From a virus: a stretch of 51,347 bases of DNA. The stretch is from UHGV virus genome UHGV-0208865. One strand, written 5' to 3'. Shown piece by piece: positions 20,295 through 44,223 of this stretch. A model generated the notes under the pieces. That model saw only the letters and a list, made by a program, of their open reading frames with translations, did not search any database and was not told where the DNA came from. Numbering within the stretch: the stretch's first letter is position 1; every line of letters begins with the position of its first letter. The position numbers and the translations under genes were made by a program.

Positions 20295-20562
20295 TATCTT
20301 CCTCCATCCAGTTTTCGGTGATGACTGCATATCCGGTACCCATGAGCCTGTTTCGGCCTGTCGGTGAGAGGCCACCAAAAATACCAGAGCGGAACTTTTT
20401 ACCGTCGATTGGTGTTTCTTCAGCTATCAGACAGTCTTGAAGGCATTGTTCCTTGACAGGGCACTCATTACAAAAAGCCCTCACAACTGTTTCGTAGAGT
20501 GTCGGGTCGTAGAACCATTCGGTTGGTGCTCCACTACAGGGTGCCTGCTTGTAGTCTGTCAC
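20269..20562 (-). CDS. whiB: WhiB-family (Wbl) transcription factor
   Basis: 97 aa. Four Cys in a C-x21-C-x2-C-x5-C arrangement (CSGAP...CNECPVKEQCLQDC) and an acidic tail. Typical of actinophages. Confidence 0.7.
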   Translation of the reverse strand: MTDYKQAPCSGAPTEWFYDPTLYETVVRAFCNECPVKEQCLQDCLIAEETPIDGKKFRSGIFGGLSPTGRNRLMGTGYAVITENWMEEDNDDDSNSN

Positions 20563-22616
20563 ACTTCCTCCCAGTTGTTGCCGACTTCTGCTTCAGCGGC
20601 AAACGGTAAGCGGTTAAAAACCAGTGTCGCTGCCTTAGCCATTTCGCGCTCCATCATCTTCGAGCACTCTTCGATGGTTTCTTCCGGGCACTCAACGTAG
20701 GTAGCGTCATGTACGAGGCCAATCAGCTTAGCCCCGTACTGCCCTGCTTGCTCGTTGATCTTGATTGCCGCGTTGAGGCAGATGTCGTTAGCAGTTGACT
20801 GCGGAACAAAGGCGAGTGCTTCATTCTGTGTCGAACTGTAGTTGTTGTCCGACACAAACAGCGGATTGAACGTGAGGCCGAACTTGGTTTTACGTTCGTT
20901 GTCTTCTTCCCTACGTCCAACACTGTGTCGTACTCGTGTCTGCCAGTCTCGAAGTCCTGGGTAGGCACCAAGGTATTGATCAACAACATGCTGTGCAGCT
21001 TCGATTGGCTGTTCGAGTGCTGTCGCAATAGCAGCCACACCACGACCGTAGTTCAAGCCGTACACCACACTCTTGACCAGTGCGCGCCTGTTCTTAGCAG
21101 TCTTTGTGTGTTCGTGCTTGAACGCCTCATATGCTTCGATTGTTGGGAACTCTTCAGGCCAGATTTTCGTCATCAGGTCATCGAAGAAGTCCGGCGCACC
21201 CGGCTGGAAGGCAGCAATCATGGCCTTGTCGTCGGCAAGCTCAGCGACAGTACGTAGCTCAGCCTGAGAGTAGTCACACGAGATGATCTTGCAACCCGAC
21301 GCAGCGACAAGGGCGCGCTTAATGCCACTGTCGCGTCCCATCGTCTGAATCGCTGGCCCCTTAGCCGACAGGCGACCCGTCTTCGCACCGTGAGGCAGGT
21401 AGTAGGGATGGATACGCCCATCCTCACCGACCTTACGTCGCACGTTGGCAATGAAGCTGCCAATCACCTTAGCTGCGTAGCGGTAGGCAAGCAGAGCGTC
21501 GATAAACTCCACTTCCTTACCTTCACGCTTCAGCTTCTTCAGGTGGTCCGAGTCGAACGAGGGAGATGACACGCCCTTGGACGTGAAGTAGTCCTTGATC
21601 TGCTTAGGGGACTGTGGGTTGAAGTCCTCGCCCGCGTGCTCACGCAGTGTCACAAGGTTCTCGTCACACTGACGCTTGTACTTTTCTTCCAGCTCATCGA
21701 GTGCTTCGAGCGACACGGCCACACCGTTCATCTGCACGTCGTTCAGAACCTTCGTGACCTGCATACGGTAGCGATAGTAGTCGTACTTTCCGCTGTTTTT
21801 AAGCATGGGAAGGAAGTACTCGTACAGCTTGAAGGTCCACACCACGTCTGCCAAGTTGTACTCGTAGAGCTTTTCCCTGGGAATGTTCTCGAAGTACGCC
21901 CCACCCTTCAGGTAAGACTTAGCATCCGAGTCCCAGTCTTCAGCGCGCAACCAGCGACGGGCAAGCGGCTTCAGGCCATGCTCACCTGCCAGGTTGTCGA
22001 GCACGAAGTGCATGAGCAGCGTGTCCTCATGATGGTACACACGGATACCCAGGCGCTTCGACAGGTAGGGCATATCGAACGTGCCGTTGTGACAGATGAC
22101 AGTGCAGGTTTCGCACAGTCGCTTGATAAGGTCTGCTGCCTTGTCGGTCTCGGCAAGCTCTTCAGGGATGACGACACCAAACTTGCCGTTCCATAGTGCA
22201 ATTGACAGGATACGGCCAGCAGCAAAGGTATCTTCGTCAATGTCGCCTGCGGACTCAATATCGAGAGCAATCACCGTACCTGGCTTGAAGGTGATGTCTT
22301 GGCCCTCCCAGATAACCCAATCCTTACCTTGCTTCAGACCAAGCTGCTCCGCACCGAGGTAGGCGTACTGCAACGCCTGAGCGAGGAACAGACCAGCCTG
22401 CGGATTAGTGACGATCTGCTTAGGTGAGAGTGTCTTGTACGCCTTGCCCTTGTAACCCTTGACTGTGCCGAGTGTGATCTTGATGTCATCATCGTTCACA
22501 TCGTCAGTGATTTCGACGTGCGCGTCCTCTGAAAGGCCGGATACCACTAGTGCCCGCCTCAGAAGAATTTGTGCAAGAACAGGCAGCTTGTCACAGTCTT
22601 CAGTCAGAATCTTCAT
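20559..22616 (-). CDS. Family A DNA polymerase (PolA-like, with 3'-5' exonuclease domain)
   Basis: 685 aa. Motif A SCDYSQAELR, motif B RRALVKSVVYGLNYG, motif C LVHDATYVE. Exo-like N-terminus. Confidence 0.85.
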   Translation of the reverse strand: MKILTEDCDKLPVLAQILLRRALVVSGLSEDAHVEITDDVNDDDIKITLGTVKGYKGKAYKTLSPKQIVTNPQAGLFLAQALQYAYLGAEQLGLKQGKDWVIWEGQDITFKPGTVIALDIESAGDIDEDTFAAGRILSIALWNGKFGVVIPEELAETDKAADLIKRLCETCTVICHNGTFDMPYLSKRLGIRVYHHEDTLLMHFVLDNLAGEHGLKPLARRWLRAEDWDSDAKSYLKGGAYFENIPREKLYEYNLADVVWTFKLYEYFLPMLKNSGKYDYYRYRMQVTKVLNDVQMNGVAVSLEALDELEEKYKRQCDENLVTLREHAGEDFNPQSPKQIKDYFTSKGVSSPSFDSDHLKKLKREGKEVEFIDALLAYRYAAKVIGSFIANVRRKVGEDGRIHPYYLPHGAKTGRLSAKGPAIQTMGRDSGIKRALVAASGCKIISCDYSQAELRTVAELADDKAMIAAFQPGAPDFFDDLMTKIWPEEFPTIEAYEAFKHEHTKTAKNRRALVKSVVYGLNYGRGVAAIATALEQPIEAAQHVVDQYLGAYPGLRDWQTRVRHSVGRREEDNERKTKFGLTFNPLFVSDNNYSSTQNEALAFVPQSTANDICLNAAIKINEQAGQYGAKLIGLVHDATYVECPEETIEECSKMMEREMAKAATLVFNRLPFAAEAEVGNNWEEV

Positions 22617-24928
22617 ACTTGCCCTCCCGAGTACTTAATGAATCGTTCGTTATTTGTCTTGCCCTTCACGACTTCTTGGATTACTCCACGTGCCTGGGCG
22701 TATGTGATGATTTCCTTCAGTTCACGCATACCGCTGATTTCAGACTGGAACTTCAACATGAGTTTCGGAATCGAAACCATACCATTGTCGGTGCGTGCAA
22801 CGAAGTTGATGAGCTTATCAACCTTGTTACTGAAATTAGAGTTCTTCACGTGATGAATGAACACTTCGTTAGAAGACAGCCAGATAGAGGCGAGCGAGAT
22901 AGCCTTCAGCATTTCCCGCATTGATACCACGACCGTACCCTTGGTCGTCGGCCCGTTATACATGGCAAGCAGAGCCGCGATACGGAGCACCGAGAACGTC
23001 ATACGCTCAGTGCCAGGGAACAGTTCACGACTGTTCAGCATGTGCCGCTCAGCAAGCACCTTAGCCTCTTCCGAAAATTCAATCCAGCGCTCGAACACGC
23101 CCGGCTCAAACTCGATAGGGATACGGACTTCCTCATTCTCCATGCGTTGCGCACGACGAGCATTGAAAGCCACGTCGAACTTGGTCACAGACTTGATAAG
23201 GTTCGACACCATGAAGTCACGCTGCTTGTCTTCAACCTTACCTGTCGATGCGCTCACGGTCACGAGCTTCACATCCTGAGAGGACGTGATGTACTTATCC
23301 CTGTCGTCAATAACAACAAGGCAACGGGGCGTAAAGCCGGACTCGACCTTTTCTGTCGTCAGATGCTTTGCGGCCTGGTCAAGAATACCTGTCCCGTAGA
23401 ACGTCATGTAATACGGGGTCGCAGTCTGGTACGCAACCTTGCCTCCCTTGTCCTTACGTGCGACAGCCGGAATGTAGCCGTCGTAGCTCTTGGTAAGGAA
23501 CGGCATCATTGATGCCATGTAGCTACCCTTTTGGGCAGCATGTGCGAAAAAGTCTTGCACCTCGTCAATAGCAAAGAGACCACTCTCTTTCGGCTTGGTG
23601 CGCAGATACGCGGACAATGCCTCGCCTGTCGAATCTTCAGGCGCAATGAAAGCATCCGGCCCCTTGCCGATACCCACCGCAATGTCGCGCATCATGGACT
23701 CTGCCAGGCGCAAAGACGTTGACTTACGAGACTGGGTAGTACGTCCCAGAACCAGGAAGTATAGGTTCAACGGCATCTTTTGTACGTTCGTAGGGAGGAA
23801 CGCATACTTAGCGAACATGCTTGAGAGGATAGCGAGAGCGCCCGCGTAGTGGAACTGCTTGGGGGCCATTGCAGACTTGGTTGATGCCCATGCCGCGAAC
23901 TGATCGACAAACAGGCCCATCGGTTCTTCCTCGTCCCCGTGTAGGAAGTCAACATCCTGCAACGACAGCTCACGCGATTCACTCAGCAGGTAGGACGAGC
24001 CGATACGGGTTGTCGCTTCGAGATCGGTTTCCGTGGGGCCATCGTGCTCAGACTTCCAACGTGCATAGTCACGATTGATCTGCTTCCAGAGGTAGCCGTC
24101 GCCACGTCCGTCTGCCTCAAACTTGTTGAACTCAGTGGCGCGCACAACGGCAAATGCTTCAACAATTGAACAACCCTCTTCCCAGAGGGCGCACTGAAGA
24201 TGGTACATCTTCGAGCTGCGGTCTTCGTCATCGTTGAAGGTGTCATCCGTAGCCAGGTCCGTGATGTAGCTGCGGTTCACCATGCCCAACACCTCAAACA
24301 TGGAGGGGATGTCGGTGGGGAAGTCTTCTTCCTCAATGCCCATGCGTTCGACAGGCGGGTACTCTGCTGCGAACTCAGCGGCGGTGATCGCCTCGTCGTT
24401 GACTGTGAGCGTGATCTCCCAGGGCTTGACGCGCTTGCAGTTATGAGTGAAAGGGACACGGAGCTTCTTCGACAGGGGCCAGCCTCGGTCCATGCCGTCG
24501 TTCTTGTGGTGCTCGTAGAGTCCTCGTGAAAGGGCTTCGAGCATGTCGTTAGAGAGGTCGGCTGCGTCTTCGAGCAGCCAGTATCCCTGCCAGTGCTTCT
24601 CGCTGGTCTGGACCTTGATCGTCGGCTGGATACGGAGCTTGTCGGTAGGGCAGTCGTCGCCGTCTGACCAGACGCACGCGGCCTTGATGACGTTATCCTT
24701 GGCTGCGTGCCTCGTGTTCGACAGGGCCGGGGGCTTGGTGTAGAGAAAGGGGCTGTAGTACACGTCCAGATCAGCGTTAGCCTCGGCGTATGCCACCATT
24801 TTATCGAGCTGCGCTGGCAGCTCAAACCACCGGAAGTTAGTCAGACCGCCCATCGGACCCTTGAGGATGATGGGGGTCCAGCCTTCACCGTCTGGGAGGA
24901 CTGCTTGGAAGAACTCTTTAAGGTTCAT
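22613..24928 (-). CDS. Primase-polymerase / helicase-like replication protein
   Basis: 771 aa from ATG 24928 (RBS GAAAGGAGAGCA). Central P-loop-like GRTTQSRKST and Walker B-like LFAIDEVQ. Large N-terminal domain. Confidence 0.45.
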   Translation of the reverse strand: MNLKEFFQAVLPDGEGWTPIILKGPMGGLTNFRWFELPAQLDKMVAYAEANADLDVYYSPFLYTKPPALSNTRHAAKDNVIKAACVWSDGDDCPTDKLRIQPTIKVQTSEKHWQGYWLLEDAADLSNDMLEALSRGLYEHHKNDGMDRGWPLSKKLRVPFTHNCKRVKPWEITLTVNDEAITAAEFAAEYPPVERMGIEEEDFPTDIPSMFEVLGMVNRSYITDLATDDTFNDDEDRSSKMYHLQCALWEEGCSIVEAFAVVRATEFNKFEADGRGDGYLWKQINRDYARWKSEHDGPTETDLEATTRIGSSYLLSESRELSLQDVDFLHGDEEEPMGLFVDQFAAWASTKSAMAPKQFHYAGALAILSSMFAKYAFLPTNVQKMPLNLYFLVLGRTTQSRKSTSLRLAESMMRDIAVGIGKGPDAFIAPEDSTGEALSAYLRTKPKESGLFAIDEVQDFFAHAAQKGSYMASMMPFLTKSYDGYIPAVARKDKGGKVAYQTATPYYMTFYGTGILDQAAKHLTTEKVESGFTPRCLVVIDDRDKYITSSQDVKLVTVSASTGKVEDKQRDFMVSNLIKSVTKFDVAFNARRAQRMENEEVRIPIEFEPGVFERWIEFSEEAKVLAERHMLNSRELFPGTERMTFSVLRIAALLAMYNGPTTKGTVVVSMREMLKAISLASIWLSSNEVFIHHVKNSNFSNKVDKLINFVARTDNGMVSIPKLMLKFQSEISGMRELKEIITYAQARGVIQEVVKGKTNNERFIKYSGGQV

Positions 24929-24956
24929 TGCTCTCCTTTCTGCTTGTATATAGTAC

Positions 24957-24993
24957 GGCGGGCCGTACCCTGGTGTCAAGATACGGCCCGCCG
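24957..24993. other. Perfect 12-bp inverted repeat hairpin between the primase gene and the upstream gene
   Basis: CGGCGGGCCGTA-ccctggtgtcaaga-TACGGCCCGCCG. Confidence 0.45.
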
Positions 24994-29141: not shown

Positions 29142-30557
29142 TCAGATAAGGCCGGATGCCTTGAGCCTGTCGAAACGTTCCTCCAAGCGTCCCAGCACAC
29201 GATCATCCACCGTGTTAGTCGCCTGAATGAGGAACCTGTTGACAGCCGTAGACTGCCCCTGTCGGTTGAGCCTGCCTGTTGCCTGTTCGTTAATCACAAG
29301 GCTGTTAGACTGACTCAGCCAAATCTCAGTATGGCACACCCGCTGAAGTCCGTCAACTCCCTCGCTCATGGCCTCGTGCTGAGCGACAATGACACGCACG
29401 TCCCCGTCAATCATTGCGTGGAAGTCCCCGCGAGACTTACCAGAGACTTCAATGCACGAGATACCAGCCTTGCGCAGACGGTGTAGCACGGCCTTAATGA
29501 ACTTCTGACTATGCACCCACACGACGACAGGCTCATCTTCAGGCAGGTCCGCAATAATATTCATCATTGCATCCAGCTTGGAAGACTTACAATCTTCCTT
29601 GTAATCGACAGTCCTGTCCTCGTTGAACGAGGGGACTCCCAGCGTCATCTGTCGCAGACGCAAGTCAAGTTCCATCGGGATAGACAGTGCAAGCGGCTTG
29701 TCGTCCAGGTACGTAAGCGCGTCTTTTTCAAGCTGAGCGTACAGTTTGCGCTGTTCGCGGGACAGTTCCACTTCCACACGGTGAATAATCACGCTTGGAA
29801 GCTCAGGGTTAGCTTCAGCCTGTGAGACTTCATGGTACGAGGGCGCTCCACGACGGACCATACCCGGCGAGCGCTCTCCCGTGTAAGTCTTCCCGAAAGA
29901 ACTGAACGGGTTGGACTCTTCCTTGAAGAACTTGGCACAAAAGTCCCAGTAACCGCCGTAATGGTTAGGCCAAAGAAACTTGAGCGCGGCCCAGATATTG
30001 CACGGCTTATTCCCAGCGGGTGTCGCACTCAGGGCAAGGCGGTACTGTGCCTGAATGTGTCGAGCAACGTCAAAGTTGAGCGACAAGTGGTTGCACGCAC
30101 GATGCCATTCATCCGCAATAACCATGCCGAAATTGACACCGTAGAACGGCTTAGCCATTGACTTGAAGACATACTTTTTCGCGCGCCCGTCCCACCGCTT
30201 TTCCTTATTGCGGGACCGCATAAGCTCCCAGGTAATAAAGTACACGCCGGGCACACGTGCTTCAAGGTCGGACCATACCGCGAGCGCGTCCTTGGTTTTC
30301 TTGCCGGACAGTGTGCGCATGTCAATTCCGGCGAGCGTCTTCCAGTGCGAGCGCCAACCACTCTCGGTACGGACAGGGGCGACAATGAGGATAATCTGTT
30401 CCCCGATAGTGCTACCGAAAGCATTAAGCGCGTTCCACACGCTCATTGCCGTCTTTCCCGTTCCCAGGCCCGCACCAACCAGGCCCGTGTACGGCGTTTT
30501 ACTGTTTGCCAGTCCTTCCAGTACACGTTCCTGGTAGTGGCGCGGCTTGAATGTCAA
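29142..30557 (-). CDS. SNF2/DEAD-like superfamily 2 helicase
   Basis: Walker A GLGTGKT, DEWH box, C-terminal helicase domain with QATGRLNRQGQ. Confidence 0.7.
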   Translation of the reverse strand: MTFKPRHYQERVLEGLANSKTPYTGLVGAGLGTGKTAMSVWNALNAFGSTIGEQIILIVAPVRTESGWRSHWKTLAGIDMRTLSGKKTKDALAVWSDLEARVPGVYFITWELMRSRNKEKRWDGRAKKYVFKSMAKPFYGVNFGMVIADEWHRACNHLSLNFDVARHIQAQYRLALSATPAGNKPCNIWAALKFLWPNHYGGYWDFCAKFFKEESNPFSSFGKTYTGERSPGMVRRGAPSYHEVSQAEANPELPSVIIHRVEVELSREQRKLYAQLEKDALTYLDDKPLALSIPMELDLRLRQMTLGVPSFNEDRTVDYKEDCKSSKLDAMMNIIADLPEDEPVVVWVHSQKFIKAVLHRLRKAGISCIEVSGKSRGDFHAMIDGDVRVIVAQHEAMSEGVDGLQRVCHTEIWLSQSNSLVINEQATGRLNRQGQSTAVNRFLIQATNTVDDRVLGRLEERFDRLKASGLI

Positions 30558-30896
30558 TTACTTAATCTCCCAAGTAATCGTCTGTGTAGTTTCTTCCCAG
30601 CCACAGTAAACCATTGCGTTAAGAACAACTTGTGCCCCTAGCTTGTCGAACATTTCTTGAACGTCGTGTTGCATGTCAGAGTTGAGATAGCGCTTGTACC
30701 CGTAGTAGTCGTCTTTGCCAATATAGGTGAGAATACTCAGACTATCCCCGTACAACTCAGCACAGATATAGTACTCACCCACGTTCAACAGGTCAACTAC
30801 CTTATTGTCCCACTTGTTAGTAAGCTCATGGATAGCATCTTCCACCGCGCGCATACAAGCGTCGCTATACATCTTAGTCAATTCTTCAAGATTCAT
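30558..30896 (-). CDS. Hypothetical protein
   Basis: ORF track. Confidence 0.4.
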   Translation of the reverse strand: MNLEELTKMYSDACMRAVEDAIHELTNKWDNKVVDLLNVGEYYICAELYGDSLSILTYIGKDDYYGYKRYLNSDMQHDVQEMFDKLGAQVVLNAMVYCGWEETTQTITWEIK

Positions 30897-34784: not shown

Positions 34785-34881
34785 GTTTGTGTCTCACTTT
34801 CTGTCGTTGGTTTGTAGGCTTTGTGCCTATGTTTCTAGTGTAGGTTGTTGATCTGTTGTTGTCAAGTTGTCAGAGTGTGTT

Positions 34882-35211: not shown

Positions 35212-35595
35212 TTAGGCGACCTCCCTAACGTTGATAAATTGCGCTCCATTACCGCTAATAGTCTCTTTGTCACACTCACGGTCGCACGCCTTATAAAGCG
35301 TATCCCAATCAATGCGGCGACCAACCATTGCCGATAGGAAACGGCGAACGTGTCGGCTAGTAGTAGTGGAATGGTAGAAAGCGTCACGATGGACAAACGT
35401 ATCCCAGTCGCCATTTTCGTTCTTGTTCACCATTGCAACGCGCGTTGTGTAAGAGTACACGTCAAACCGGCAATTGCGGATCGGGTGGTTGTGGTTAGCG
35501 GCAATTGTAAAGTTGTTGCTAACCGGATACAAGCCGTCAATACGATCGTGGTTCAAGTCCCATGCGGCAGCGTCGATATCGTCAAGAATACCCAT
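35212..35595 (-). CDS. Hypothetical protein (127 aa; trimmed to ATG 35595)
   Basis: RBS CAGAAAGACGAAAGACAATG. Confidence 0.4.
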   Translation of the reverse strand: MGILDDIDAAAWDLNHDRIDGLYPVSNNFTIAANHNHPIRNCRFDVYSYTTRVAMVNKNENGDWDTFVHRDAFYHSTTTSRHVRRFLSAMVGRRIDWDTLYKACDRECDKETISGNGAQFINVREVA

Positions 35596-35626
35596 TGTCT
35601 TTCGTCTTTCTGTGTTGGGTTGTTGG

Positions 35627-35884
35627 TCAGTACTGCCAACCGTCACGGTCGGTATCTGTCGCAAACTCTCGCAGTGTTGCGCCGGTCGGAAAGTAATCGT
35701 CCCACGCTTCCATATCGCGCGCGATACGTTCCATCTCACGGCGTTCACGTGCCCTAATACGCTTTGAGATATCGCGGCGCGCCTTAGTGTAGGGGGAGTG
35801 TTCGCGGGCGAACTGCGTGGGATGCCACGCCGCCCCGCGCGCTTCCTTGACGTGCCAAGGGTCAGTCTTGAAAGTGTGTGCCAT
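35627..35884 (-). CDS. Small basic protein (Arg-rich, possibly nucleic-acid binding)
   Basis: RRDISKRIRARERREMERIARDMEAWDD. Confidence 0.4.
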   Translation of the reverse strand: MAHTFKTDPWHVKEARGAAWHPTQFAREHSPYTKARRDISKRIRARERREMERIARDMEAWDDYFPTGATLREFATDTDRDGWQY

Positions 35885-35995
35885 TGTCTTTGCCTTTCGG
35901 TTTGTGCAACACCTCGGTTGTGTCGCATCGTTCCCCCGGTTGGGATTGAACCAACCTTGACACTCACCATTAAGCGGGGGAAGTTGAAGACTTAA

Positions 35996-36534: not shown

Positions 36535-36621
36535 TAGTTTCACCTTTCGGCTTGTCTTTGTTGATACTCTCAGTTTAGCGGGTTGCTGGCTTGTTGTCAA
36601 CCCGCTAAACTGTGTTGTCCG

Positions 36622-36909
36622 TCACTTGTTGATTGACTTGGAAAGCGCGGTCAGTGCTGCAACAGCGGTGTTAGCCAAGTCACGGTCAAGGTGTCCGCGC
36701 AGCGATTCATCGTTGATCTTGCTCGACAGGTCGATCATATCGTGGAACAAAGCGTTAATACACTTTGCAGTGCGTCGTTCTTCGTGTTCGCGCCTAATCG
36801 CGCCTTTGCGTGCGCTATCGACAGGCAGAAAATAGCGTTCCTGGTAGTCGCGTTCGTATTCTGCGAGGCGTGCCATCGTTTCGTAATCACACGCGAACGA
36901 GGTTCTCAT
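36622..36909 (-). CDS. Hypothetical protein, first gene of the leftward early operon
   Basis: RBS CCGAAAGGAAGCCGAAAA-ATG. Promoter-like elements lie immediately upstream. Confidence 0.45.
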   Translation of the reverse strand: MRTSFACDYETMARLAEYERDYQERYFLPVDSARKGAIRREHEERRTAKCINALFHDMIDLSSKINDESLRGHLDRDLANTAVAALTALSKSINK

Positions 36910-36951
36910 TTTTCGGCTTCCTTTCGGGTTGTTTCGTTTGCCGATACTTAA

Positions 36952-36980
36952 AGATTAGTGGGTAGGGCGTACGTTGTCAA
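36952..36980 (-). promoter_or_regulatory. Leftward promoter candidate (TTGACA-17-TAATCT) with a conserved leader
   Basis: Minus-strand TTGACA (+ strand 36975-36980) and TAATCT (+ strand 36952-36957) with a 17-nt spacer. The leader CTAATCTTTAAGTATCGGCAAACGAAACAACC is repeated at 33639-33715. Confidence 0.45.
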
Positions 36981-37054
36981 CATGAAAACATGTGATTAGG
37001 GACACATTGTTTAATGGTGGTTGTTAGCGGGTATGGAATAAGGAACGCGTGCGC

Positions 37055-37083
37055 GTAATAGCACCTTAGTTATGAGTTGTCAA
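37055..37083 (-). promoter_or_regulatory. Second leftward promoter candidate (TTGACA-17-TATTAC)
   Basis: Minus-strand TTGACA at + strand 37078-37083 and TATTAC at + strand 37055-37060. Confidence 0.4.
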
Positions 37084-37508
37084 TAGCTAGGCTATGTGTT
37101 GTGTGCGACAGGCTGTTAGGGCTGTTTGTTAGCAAGGTGAGAGCGGCGGCCCTGGCAGTTTATACCCTGTAGGGAGTGAATGTCAAGGTTTTAGTGTGTG
37201 TCGTTGGTTATATTGTGGGGCGTGTCAAGACAGCGACAGGGCCGGGAGGGATAACTAGACATCTCATAATGTGGATAGTTTTTGTGTTCGTGTTGACTTT
37301 AGAGTGAGAGTATGTTACTCGCATGGGCATAGCGTGGCGATTAGGTGGGTTGGTGGGTGTGGGTAGTGTGTAGGACAGCGTTTAAGGGGTCTAGAAGCGT
37401 GTCTGAGCGTGTTTTATAGTGTGGGTGGTAGTGGGTAGCCTTGAGTGGGTGTTAGGGCGTTGTAGGGGGCGTAGCGTAAATGTCATGACAATTCAATAGA
37501 GGTAGGTA

Positions 37509-37540
37509 TGCATATTATGCACTCGGTTGCATAATATGCA
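37509..37540. repeat. Perfect 13-bp inverted repeat TGCATATTATGCA-ctcggt-TGCATAATATGCA (operator/cruciform candidate)
   Basis: Read directly from the sequence. Confidence 0.7.
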
Positions 37541-37543
37541 GTC

Positions 37544-37574
37544 CTCGCGCGTACGCAGCTACGCGAGCGTTTTT
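37544..37574 (+). terminator. GC hairpin plus T5, a terminator-like element for rightward transcription
   Basis: CTCGCGCGTA-cgcagc-TACGCGAG-cg-TTTTT. Confidence 0.4.
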
Positions 37575-37731
37575 AACTTTATTAATATATAAATAATAAT
37601 GATAATATAATAATAAAAAAATTAAGTATAGATATAGATAGTTACTAATAATGTTTATTAATGGTTGATATTACACGTTAATAAATTAGTTATTGTGTGT
37701 AAATAATATTCTTAGTACGTAGAAAAAATAG
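37575..37731. other. AT-rich island (about 160 bp, over 85% A+T) in a genome that looks GC-rich on inspection; candidate DNA unwinding element
   Basis: ttattaatatataaataataatgataatataataataaaaaaattaagtatagatatagatag... Confidence 0.6.
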
Positions 37732-37808
37732 GGGGGACTACGCGAGGCGAAAATTAGGGGCCGTTGGTTGTGTTGGTTGCTTGCAGTTGATGCTAGTTCG
37801 TTGCAGTT

Positions 37809-37826
37809 GGTTGGTTGGTTGGTTGG
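37809..37826 (+). repeat. (GGTT)4GG tract, a two-tetrad G-quadruplex motif
   Basis: ggttggttggttggttgg. Confidence 0.5.
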
Positions 37827-37855
37827 TAAGGCAGGGGTAAGCTAGGTTAGGTGAG

Positions 37856-37918
37856 GGGTAGTTAAGTTAGGTAAGCCTAAGTTAGGGGGAGGGTAGTTAA
37901 GTTAGGTATACCTAAGTT
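37856..37918. repeat. Two 28-bp direct repeats (35-bp period), each containing a TTAGGTA..CCTAA palindrome. Copy 2 has the perfect palindrome TTAGGTATACCTAA. Iteron/operator candidates.
   Basis: gggtagttaagttaggtaagcctaagtt / gggtagttaagttaggtatacctaagtt. Confidence 0.6.
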
Positions 37919-38218
37919 TTGTTAATGGGTTTGGGTCCGGGGTTAGGGTGGGTATGTTGTGATGCGCGTCTCAAAATTGGGTATGGGTTTGGGTCGGGTA
38001 TGCGTTAGGGGATATGGGGCCGATGGTTGGTAGGACGCGGGGAGTGTGCTTGACAGGCGGGTGATTCGGGGCGTTTTTGAGGCAACTAAAAAATCAAATG
38101 CTTAGTAAGTGTAAAGATGGAGTGGGGTGTCATACCAGTTTGTGTATCTGGGATGTACTGGCACATACCCGTTTGTGCATACCCCTCAATAGAGTGGGTC
38201 AGATCACACGCTATCTTG

Positions 38219-38247
38219 TTGACTTTAACCGTCTATCCTTCTATGCT
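38219..38247 (+). promoter_or_regulatory. Rightward promoter candidate (TTGACT-17-TATGCT) for the operon starting at 38281
   Basis: TTGACT 38219-38224, TATGCT 38242-38247. Upstream direct repeats CATACC(A/C)GTTTGTG at 38133 and 38164. Confidence 0.5.
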
Positions 38248-38280
38248 TAAAACATTAACACCAAACGCAAAGGAGAAATC

Positions 38281-38520
38281 ATGGACGACCTACTGAACAC
38301 TAAGTTTTGTATCTCAACAGGCCATTGGATCACTTACGAGTGCCTACTTGATACCGGCACCGTCGTACACTTGCAAAAGCCCAGCAATAAAGTATGGATG
38401 CTCAACCACGACAAGCAGTGGGTGAACTGCAATGGTGAAAGCATCACAATCGAAGATATGCTGCAACGCATTGAACAACCCAACCAGGTTGTCGAAGTTA
38501 TCTACAGCCCTCACGTCTAA
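38281..38520 (+). CDS. Hypothetical protein
   Basis: RBS CAAAGGAGAAATC-ATG. Confidence 0.5.
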   Translation: MDDLLNTKFCISTGHWITYECLLDTGTVVHLQKPSNKVWMLNHDKQWVNCNGESITIEDMLQRIEQPNQVVEVIYSPHV

Positions 38521-41470: not shown

Positions 41471-41646
41471 TGTTGACTTTTGCTGTTGGGCTACTTATCC
41501 TCGGCTTTGCAGTGGCACTTCTCGGGATGATGCTCGATGAGGTCTACAATTGGGGCGCTAAGGTCGTTGCGGCTGGCACGATTATGATCTGCGTGTCTCT
41601 TGCTTGCCTTGCTGGTTGTGTCTTTTACTATGGTGTTCACGTCTAA
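41470..41646 (+). CDS. Small membrane protein (58 aa, GTG start)
   Basis: Hand-translated hydrophobic ORF VLTFAVGLLILGFAVALLGMMLDE... Confidence 0.3.
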   Translation: MLTFAVGLLILGFAVALLGMMLDEVYNWGAKVVAAGTIMICVSLACLAGCVFYYGVHV

Positions 41647-43040: not shown

Positions 43041-43073
43041 TTGACAGGTGTGGGCAGAGCACATTAGTATAAA
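43041..43073 (+). promoter_or_regulatory. Promoter candidate TTGACA-18-TAGTAT(AAA)
   Basis: Read directly from the sequence. Confidence 0.5.
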
Positions 43074-44193: not shown

Positions 44194-44223
44194 TTGACAG
44201 CTTAGAAACGGTGACTCTATACT
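44194..44223 (+). promoter_or_regulatory. Promoter candidate TTGACA-18-TATACT upstream of the tRNA cluster
   Basis: Read directly from the sequence. Confidence 0.5.

Follow-up and report, generated by a model that had tools for sequence, protein, structure and literature searches.

We analyzed an AT island in the genome of the phage UHGV-0208865. The whole stretch of DNA that was analyzed (hereafter, the window) comprises 51,347 bp with a mean GC content of 0.517. The island occupies the middle of a 1,371-bp non-coding gap (positions 36910–38280), which separates a leftward replication operon from a rightward early operon. We tentatively propose that the island is the unwinding core, namely the DNA unwinding element (DUE), of a single-copy cis element, for which a replication origin is the most likely function. 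Conservation among relatives, computed melting and the genomic context speak for this proposal. If the island is such a core, the segment of approximately 37450–37950 would be a concrete and clonable origin candidate. The phage family is abundant in the human mouth (more than 60 contigs) and uncultured.

The island is the lowest-GC 157-bp segment in the 51,347 bp. Its GC content is 0.146, as compared with the mean of 0.517 and a standard deviation of 0.049 (z = −7.4). The runner-up segment of the same size elsewhere in the genome has a GC content of 0.35, and the next-best AT segments are merely 10–11 bp long. The preliminary description, which was made from the letters of the sequence, gave over 85% A+T for positions 37575–37731. 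This interval (157 bp) contains 84.7% A+T and falls slightly short of that value, whereas the natural limits of 37570–37730 (161 bp) enclose 86% A+T and the maximal-scoring core of 37570–37710 reaches 87%. The sharp delimitation was confirmed: the right end is formed by six G residues (37731–37736), and no other segment of this kind exists in the genome. The placement between a palindrome/terminator and G-tract arrays was also correct, as an inverted repeat and a GC-rich hairpin with a T-run lie on the left and G/T-rich repeat arrays lie on the right. Two further statements did not hold. The internal repeats are low-complexity (AAT)n at 37592–37616 and 2.5 copies of TATAGA, and the repeat finder did not report a direct-repeat family inside the island. 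The surrounding sequence is not GC-rich; the flanks have 43–53% GC, but with a strong excess of G over C on the plus strand (skew 0.4–0.8, C 10–12%). The island has a conserved polarity: simple sequence made up of A/T alone fills the left half (approximately 37575–37620), and a more complex sequence follows in the right half. The left gene is 661 bp and the right gene 550 bp away from the island, and the minimum of the cumulative GC skew of the genome is nearby, at approximately 36 kb.

From more than 60 related contigs, 52 instances of the island were collected, 28 of which were distinct. Since the 28 distinct sequences come from many independent assemblies, the island is not an artefact. An A+T island (GC 0.07–0.21) beside G-skewed DNA was present in every relative with enough flanking sequence, approximately 640–725 bp upstream of the rightward gene. 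It was kept even in relatives whose helicase is only 85–88% identical. The 28 sequences form six types (A to F), which cannot be aligned with one another beyond low-complexity AAT runs. The distance from the left edge to the G-run is 161–178 bp in nearly all of them (GC 0.08–0.25). The exceptions are two type-E variants of approximately 200–216 bp, and a few type-B and type-C variants in which only a 73–108-bp core scores as island. Measured from a conserved block on the left (GGACAATT), the G-run is reached after 245–281 bp.

The edges of the island were compared in the same sequences. The left edge is mostly GC-richer (median 54% over 25 nt, range 36–76%) and often takes the form of a short dyad or hairpin rich in GC; only some types have a T-run after it. 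At the right edge, a run of 4–7 G, a spacer of 2–8 nt (mostly A/T) and the motif CGCGRG were found in all 28 distinct sequences. Across the family, an element resembling AGTTCGTTGCAGTTG lies 42–65 nt to the right of the G-run, with offsets that step by approximately 10 nt in a 10-bp tandem array. This 10-bp-phased AGTTCGTTGC element is conserved family-wide and occurs once per genome, as does the boundary motif. In the right half of the island, some relatives possess two to four copies of TTGTGTGTWAATAA at a spacing of 20–22 bp. Since the sequence has been replaced and the position, length, A+T content and boundaries have persisted, the comparison argues for a composition-dependent function of the island. 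The conservation of length, composition and edges with a swapped sequence would be a clear case, found in nature, of selection that acts on a physical property of DNA and not on its sequence. An origin-type AT-rich unwinding segment is not a new kind of element; what this abundant oral phage family would add is one that is length-conserved and cassette-swapped between fixed clamps.

The exchange of the island was seen directly in contig 7000000269_000014, which carries a type-B island within flanks almost identical to those of the window. Among type-A phages, the island was 94–95% identical in two relatives and 83% identical in a third, and the identities of the other segments of the region were 24–86%. 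Thus, as judged from these alignments, the region is pieced together, mosaic-like, from modules that can be exchanged. We then compared the replication proteins between the island types. The family-A DNA polymerase (PolA), the primase and the helicase are approximately 88–100% identical among phages with island types A–D, and primases with 99% identity occur in some phages whose islands are of type B or C. This primase, a 788-aa protein, is at least 95% identical across types A–D and 91% identical in the one type-F genome. Among the 37 open reading frames (ORFs) of 19.8–40.5 kb, no gene was found whose alleles follow the island type. Thus, the machinery is constant while the sequence of the island varies. 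Because of this constancy, the interior is read as a sequence that the replication machinery would not recognize and that is probably constrained in composition and length. The conserved edges and the right-flank repeats are candidates for sequence-specific recognition.

Two other origins of the island were considered and rejected. Reverse-complement alignment scores between the types were at or near the shuffled background, which does not support an invertible segment. A 9-nt direct repeat, CTACGCGAG, flanks the island and was considered as the target-site duplication of an insertion; however, it is found in type A only and is not conserved in the other types.

Strand opening was calculated with our own single-bubble approximation of Benham's stress-induced duplex destabilisation (SIDD), in which copolymer energies were used, multi-bubble states were ignored and the DNA was treated in 5-kb tiles. 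The preliminary description had proposed a SIDD calculation as a check, and in this simplified form the expected preferential melting was obtained. The island opens with a probability of approximately 1 at sigma ≤ −0.045 and is the dominant site in the window; no other tile comes close. At sigma = −0.055, positions 37572–37661 are open with a probability of approximately 1 and the probability of the closed state is approximately 1e-14, whereas it is at least 9e-4 in all other tiles. The calculation was also applied to seven relatives (types B, C, D, E and F, a type-A variant and one distant relative). In each case, the island was the only predicted open site in 8–13 kb.

The genomic context fits an origin. 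An early intergenic region between divergent operons, adjacent to the replication module, contains the island, which lies near the skew minimum and next to single-copy phased repeats. The cis element is single-copy and keeps its position close to the replication genes and to the switch of the skew, although the skew is confounded by gene orientation. If the island acts as an origin core, negative supercoiling would focus strand opening into the A+T segment of approximately 165 bp. The bubble would be confined by the GC-richer left edge, often a dyad or hairpin, and by the G-run and CGCGRG on the right. The G-run/CGCGRG and the 10-bp-phased AGTTCGTTGC repeats to the right of the island would probably be where a conserved initiator docks. 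For this role, the 788-aa primase/helicase-like protein is the obvious candidate; it would be loaded onto the opened strands. The forks would then leave outward, co-directionally with the two diverging operons. Since the function would need composition and length and not a specific sequence, the interior of the island could be swapped as a cassette.

This layout was compared with those of known systems. In the P4 and lambda origins, repeated initiator sites adjoin an AT-rich unwinding segment. The alpha protein of P4 (777 aa) unites the functions of primase, helicase and origin binding and is of about the same size as the 788-aa protein, for which Pfam, PDB and NCBIfam gave no match. The lambda origin differs in that it is located inside the O gene, and the island is 3–4 times longer than its AT segment of approximately 40 bp. 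The origins of staphylococcal pathogenicity islands (SaPIs) possess an AT-rich centre that melts and flanking short iterons, which are bound by a self-loading Rep helicase that is sometimes fused to a primase (PMC9371898). The present layout would work most like those of the SaPI, P4 and lambda origins; with SaPIs it shares an AT-rich centre, adjoining short repeats and a single-copy element beside replication genes. However, the iterons of SaPIs are 5–6 nt long, flank the centre on either side with opposite orientations and vary together with the specificity of Rep, whereas the phage has clear repeats, of 10-bp units, on one side only; these units are conserved despite the variation of the AT core, and their cognate protein is only a candidate.

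By protein, the closest cultured phages are actinobacteriophages, foremost those of Arthrobacter cluster AQ (e.g. Amigo), with which the gene order is shared. In Amigo, the genes for PolA, primase, Sak4, exonuclease and helicase are on the minus strand and are followed by a non-coding gap of approximately 1 kb and then by rightward small genes. The gap contains eight tandem TTTGTACYGG-like repeats of 10–11 bp, which adjoin the part with the highest A+T content, and a 260-bp stretch with four DnaA-box-like sites (L031 22790–22900 and 22721–22982; 52.8–53.0 kb of the record). However, the primase identity is 27%, the gap has only a mild AT dip (minimum 36% GC), DnaA-box-like sites are present and the G-skew is absent. 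Upstream of gene 1 of Amigo, just within the start of its direct terminal repeat of 1,584 bp, lies the most A+T-rich and most easily melted site of this phage (45–170 nt into the repeat; L168 45–170, which corresponds to L031 27635–27760). The intergenic gap of Amigo, its repeats and the DnaA-box-like sites are not mentioned in the published description of cluster AQ (PMC5513430), and a literature search for a description of this region found nothing.

Several results weigh against the origin. The label of the 788-aa protein comes from its match to PHROG 10514 "DNA primase" (1.6e-86), and sequence searches of Pfam, NCBIfam and PDB, including those with permissive thresholds, gave no match at all. 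No initiator family was detected in the domain and profile searches of the phage proteins. A DnaA-box cluster is absent: the region contains one 8/9 match (CTATCCACA, 37270–37278), and the matches in the window (29 versus 20 ± 4.6 expected) do not cluster locally. Clear repeats are found on one side of the island only. The GC-skew evidence carries the confounding by gene orientation mentioned above, and the excess of G over C keeps the same sign on either side of the island, without a flip. The type-A island is the best conserved piece of its region, which could also mean sequence-specific recognition by some factor. The melting result was obtained with the simplified copolymer-energy version of Benham's method, and since the composition is given, the predicted opening is close to a restatement of it. 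In Amigo, the strongest AT-rich site is inside the terminal repeat and not in the divergent intergenic region. Thus, the suggestion in the preliminary description that the island is a segment of the kind melted at origins stays the reasonable default and is partly supported, by the computed melting, the conservation and the context, but not by an initiator protein, a co-varying gene, a skew flip or the position of the site in Amigo.

An origin of another layout was also considered. In T4 oriF/oriG, ColE1 and the mitochondrial heavy-strand origin (CSBII), a DUE is combined with G-rich transcribed DNA, and in ColE1 and mitochondrial DNA an rG/dC cluster stabilizes the hybrid (PMC4412123). In T4, a promoter is paired with a downstream DUE (PMC4412123). 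At the level of sequence, the phages resemble these R-loop origins: a run of 4–7 G abuts the island in all relatives, both flanks are poor in C on the plus strand, and the only G-quadruplex (G4) motifs are located there. In the window, the C depletion covers 36997–37500 and 37732–38150 (G 36–40%, C 10–12%), and it was likewise observed in all ten aligned relatives; the gap contains 44 runs of three or more G versus four of three or more C. The whole 1.2-kb core might thus be a transcription- or R-loop-assisted origin of undescribed layout, which we consider unlikely. Such a layout would consist of a length-constrained (approximately 165 bp) and sequence-free A+T bubble, a right clamp of G-run/CGCGRG, a usually GC-richer left edge, and C-depleted, G-rich or purine-rich flanks with the only G4 motifs of the genome. 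Strand separation and the priming of synthesis would be the task of G-rich transcripts or G4 structures, and the island "alleles" would be swapped as cassettes between co-circulating phages. However, no TTGAC-N17–19-TAnnnT site was found in the island or pointing at it. Since no promoter aimed at the island was found, the R-loop-assisted origin stays a minority hypothesis.

The same G-rich flank bears on the main rival of an origin. The hairpin followed by TTTTGTT, 170–190 nt to the right of the G-run, is conserved with its stem kept and its loop variable, and it suggests transcription of the plus strand to the right of the island. Therefore, a transcription start zone stays the main rival, although we regard it as somewhat unlikely. 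In such a zone, −10-only (TANNNT) promoters or UP-like A+T sequence would serve the host RNA polymerase in a regulatory and not a replicative role; short non-coding G-rich transcripts would run rightward from at or near the G-run to the hairpin/T-run of 37898–37925, and/or transcripts would run leftward. Many actinobacterial promoters lack a −35 element, and the probable host is an oral actinobacterium (see below). In several types, an A-tract (AAAAAT-like) stands directly before the G-run, and a consensus scan matched TTAATA-18-TATAAT at 37582–37611. However, hexamers are expected by chance in A+T-rich DNA (6 found versus 3.2 ± 1.7 expected in the region). A sigma-70/SigA promoter with an UP element was rejected, because the hexamer matches are not conserved across the island types and have no fixed −35/−10 pair. 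The promoter type of the phage itself, TTGAC-N17–19-TAnnnT, was found 11 times versus 4.15 expected, always co-oriented with the genes; no copy is inside the island, and within the gap the sites lie only at the edges (Table 1). In 17 of the 28 islands, this site was not found on either strand even when one mismatch was allowed, and none is at a conserved position. Furthermore, a promoter has no need of approximately 165 bp at 80–90% A+T with a conserved length, and a family match was not found in Rfam, where gathering and permissive thresholds gave only tRNAs elsewhere and two sub-threshold chance matches. Instead of transcription, the A+T content may serve an architectural element, on which an A+T-preferring nucleoid protein (e.g. 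Lsr2) or a phage DNA-binding protein nucleates without an origin function, insulating or timing the two divergent early promoters approximately 600 bp away on each side. The central placement between the flanking genes, the length kept at 161–178 bp, the 20–22-bp-spaced motifs in the right half of some relatives, the discrete types that are each well conserved internally, and the variable dyad elements adjoining the island are all compatible with this role. Lsr2-type regulators are reported to occur in actinobacteriophages (PMC8612146). However, no gene of 19.8–40.5 kb co-varies with the island type, a DNA-binding domain was not found in the small flanking proteins, for which domain searches gave nothing beyond PHROG labels, and the candidate host nucleoid protein depends on the inferred host. 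Moreover, a signal of A-tract phasing or curvature was not found (z ≤ 1.0 at periods 10–11 in six representative islands). An architectural role is thus an improbable alternative.

The ends of the metagenomic contigs raise a different explanation, namely that a physical end of the genome or a terminal-repeat boundary lies at or next to the island, as with the A-rich segment inside the terminal repeat of Amigo. Of the 61 IMG/VR loci (in the series L104–L166), 24 end 5.2–8.2 kb upstream of the helicase gene, as compared with approximately 4 expected, and several contigs end inside the island; the contigs broken at this region include 3300045988_024193, 3300045988_031053 and L001–L004. However, the ends are spread over approximately 2–3 kb without a single-nucleotide pile-up. 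In one contig, the two termini overlap by 119 nt within the island, as expected if a circular assembly had been cut at this point; a second contig lacks nothing but the island, as expected if coverage dropped out in extreme A+T. The mosaic of alleles would tangle assembly graphs, the terminase genes are approximately 15 kb away, and the flanking genes are not homologous to the terminal-repeat genes of Amigo. A genome end at the island is therefore quite improbable, and the excess of contig ends looks like coverage loss in extreme A+T combined with graph tangling in a multi-allelic region. In practice, metagenome assemblies of these phages break repeatedly at the island and its flanks. Contig L003 has an odd end, which was considered as a variant junction; this was rejected, because the end is the reverse complement of the other end of the same contig and hence an assembly artefact. 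A Logan contig has a fold-back artefact at 37582. Finally, the preliminary description had itself offered the alternative of a functionless relic of acquired A+T-rich DNA, to which a neutral spacer may be added. The exchange of the island as a cassette between lineages would suit such a relic. However, 28 distinct sequences from six types that cannot be aligned with one another share the position, length, composition and both boundary motifs of the island, and neutral DNA would not retain 75–92% A+T and a near-constant length in a genome of 52% GC. This conservation makes a relic very unlikely, to the point that we give it hardly any credence.

Table 1. Features of the control region and of the rest of the window
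Feature	Position	Strand	Remarks
Terminase/portal-position ORFs including a 502-aa ORF, and tape-measure-position 1,766-aa ORF	1 to ~20 kb	+	Assigned by position and size alone
Family-A DNA polymerase (PolA)	20559–22616	−	Replication module
788-aa "DNA primase" (primase/helicase-like)	22613–24979	−	PHROG label
Sak4-like protein, exonuclease, dCMP deaminase		−	Rest of the replication module
SNF2-type helicase	29142–30557	−	Replication module
First gene of the leftward replication-module operon	36622–36909	−	
Conserved ATCACATG..TGTTGAC block			Inverted repeat; precedes the promoter-like site at 36952–36980
Promoter-like site TTGACA-17-TAATCT	36952–36980	−	For the replication-module operon; nearly invariant in 10 aligned relatives
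Left flank, C-poor, non-coding	36997–37500	+	G 36.5%, C 12.3%; purine-rich (A/G) module instead in some relatives
Second promoter-like site TTGACA-18-TAAACT	37157–37186	−	Leftward; in only some relatives
Conserved block GTAGCGTAAATGTCATGACAATT	37471–37493		Left anchor of the exchangeable module
Inverted repeat	37504–37545		18-nt arms (37504–37521/37528–37545), 89% complementary, 6-nt spacer; stable hairpin in DNA fold; perfect 13-nt core TGCATATTATGCA / TGCATAATATGCA
GC-rich hairpin (stem 37548–37565) and T-run	37544–37574	+	Left clamp of the island
AT island	37570–37730		161 bp, 86% A+T
TTGTGTGTAAATAA motif	37693–37706	+	Right half of the island, one copy; 2–4 copies at 20–22-bp spacing in L143 and L134
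GGGGGG + ACTA + CGCGAGGCG	37731–37749	+	Right clamp; single occurrence in the window
10-bp-phased repeats GTTGCTTGCA / GTTGATGCTA / GTTCGTTGCA, then (GGTT)n	37774–37827	+	Period 10, 4.8 copies
Hairpin TTAGGTA/TACCTAA, then TTTTGTT	37898–37925	+	Conserved; stem kept, loop varies
Canonical G-quadruplex motifs	37927–37952, 37979–37998	+	The only two in the window
Promoter-like site TTGACT-17-TATGCT	38219–38247	+	For the operon starting at 38281
Small rightward genes	starting at 38281	+	
Three tRNAs	44.3–44.7 kb		

The elements around the island also vary between relatives. In place of the inverted repeat on the left, relatives possess other dyad or direct-repeat elements. In two of them (L117 and L143, reverse strand), a purine-rich module, taaagaacggaaagagaaggcaaagg..., replaces the G/T-rich left flank and the dyad approximately 130 nt to the left of the type-A island. 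The property kept on the plus strand between these relatives and the window is the lack of C, and not the richness in G/T. To the right of the island, 35-nt repeats were detected at 37836–37918 (2.4 copies by Tandem Repeats Finder and three by the repeat finder). They contain the palindromes TTAGGTAAGCCTAA and TTAGGTATACCTAA; in type-C relatives, TTAGGTAAGCCTAA is replaced by another dyad (GCACATATGTG...). The hairpin within 37898–37925 resembles a plus-strand terminator, since its stem is kept while its loop varies. Just upstream of the rightward promoter-like site, CATACCCGTTTGTG(T/C)AT is repeated 33 bp apart (38131–38180). The window has two copies and the close relative L001 has three (500–560), and they are probably sites for a regulator.

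Further TTGAC-N17–19-TAnnnT sites are distributed over the window, for example at 24950–24979, 30768–30796, 34837–34865 and 36572–36600 on the minus strand and at 41473–41501, 43041–43070 and 44194–44223 on the plus strand. The −10 element of these promoter-like sites is often TAnnCT or TAnACT.

The window is probably a complete phage genome with a siphovirus-type (long-tailed) layout. The 502-aa ORF in the terminase/portal region gave no match in Pfam. A DNA search with the control region and 15 kb around it found no match among GenBank phages, and a literature search on the phage family found nothing. In IMG/VR, more than 60 related contigs of approximately 50 kb were found. Many of them are from one large sample set, and some are from samples numbered 7000000xxx, which we take to be Human Microbiome Project samples. 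Four further related contigs are inside genome bins labelled Rothia, Actinomyces or Atopobium. Since contigs are binned with these genera and the nearest cultured phages infect Arthrobacter, the host is probably an oral actinobacterium.

In the ORF at 35212–35970, the N-terminal half appears to be non-coding. The overlapping plus-strand frame reads ...GIEPT..., which is typical of the T-arm of a tRNA. ARAGORN and Rfam did not find a tRNA at 35212–35995 of the window. At the position equivalent to 35212–35995, T-arm-like sequences or tRNA ends are present in relatives, namely in an intergenic insertion of L012 and at the ends of 3300019854_000011 and L166.

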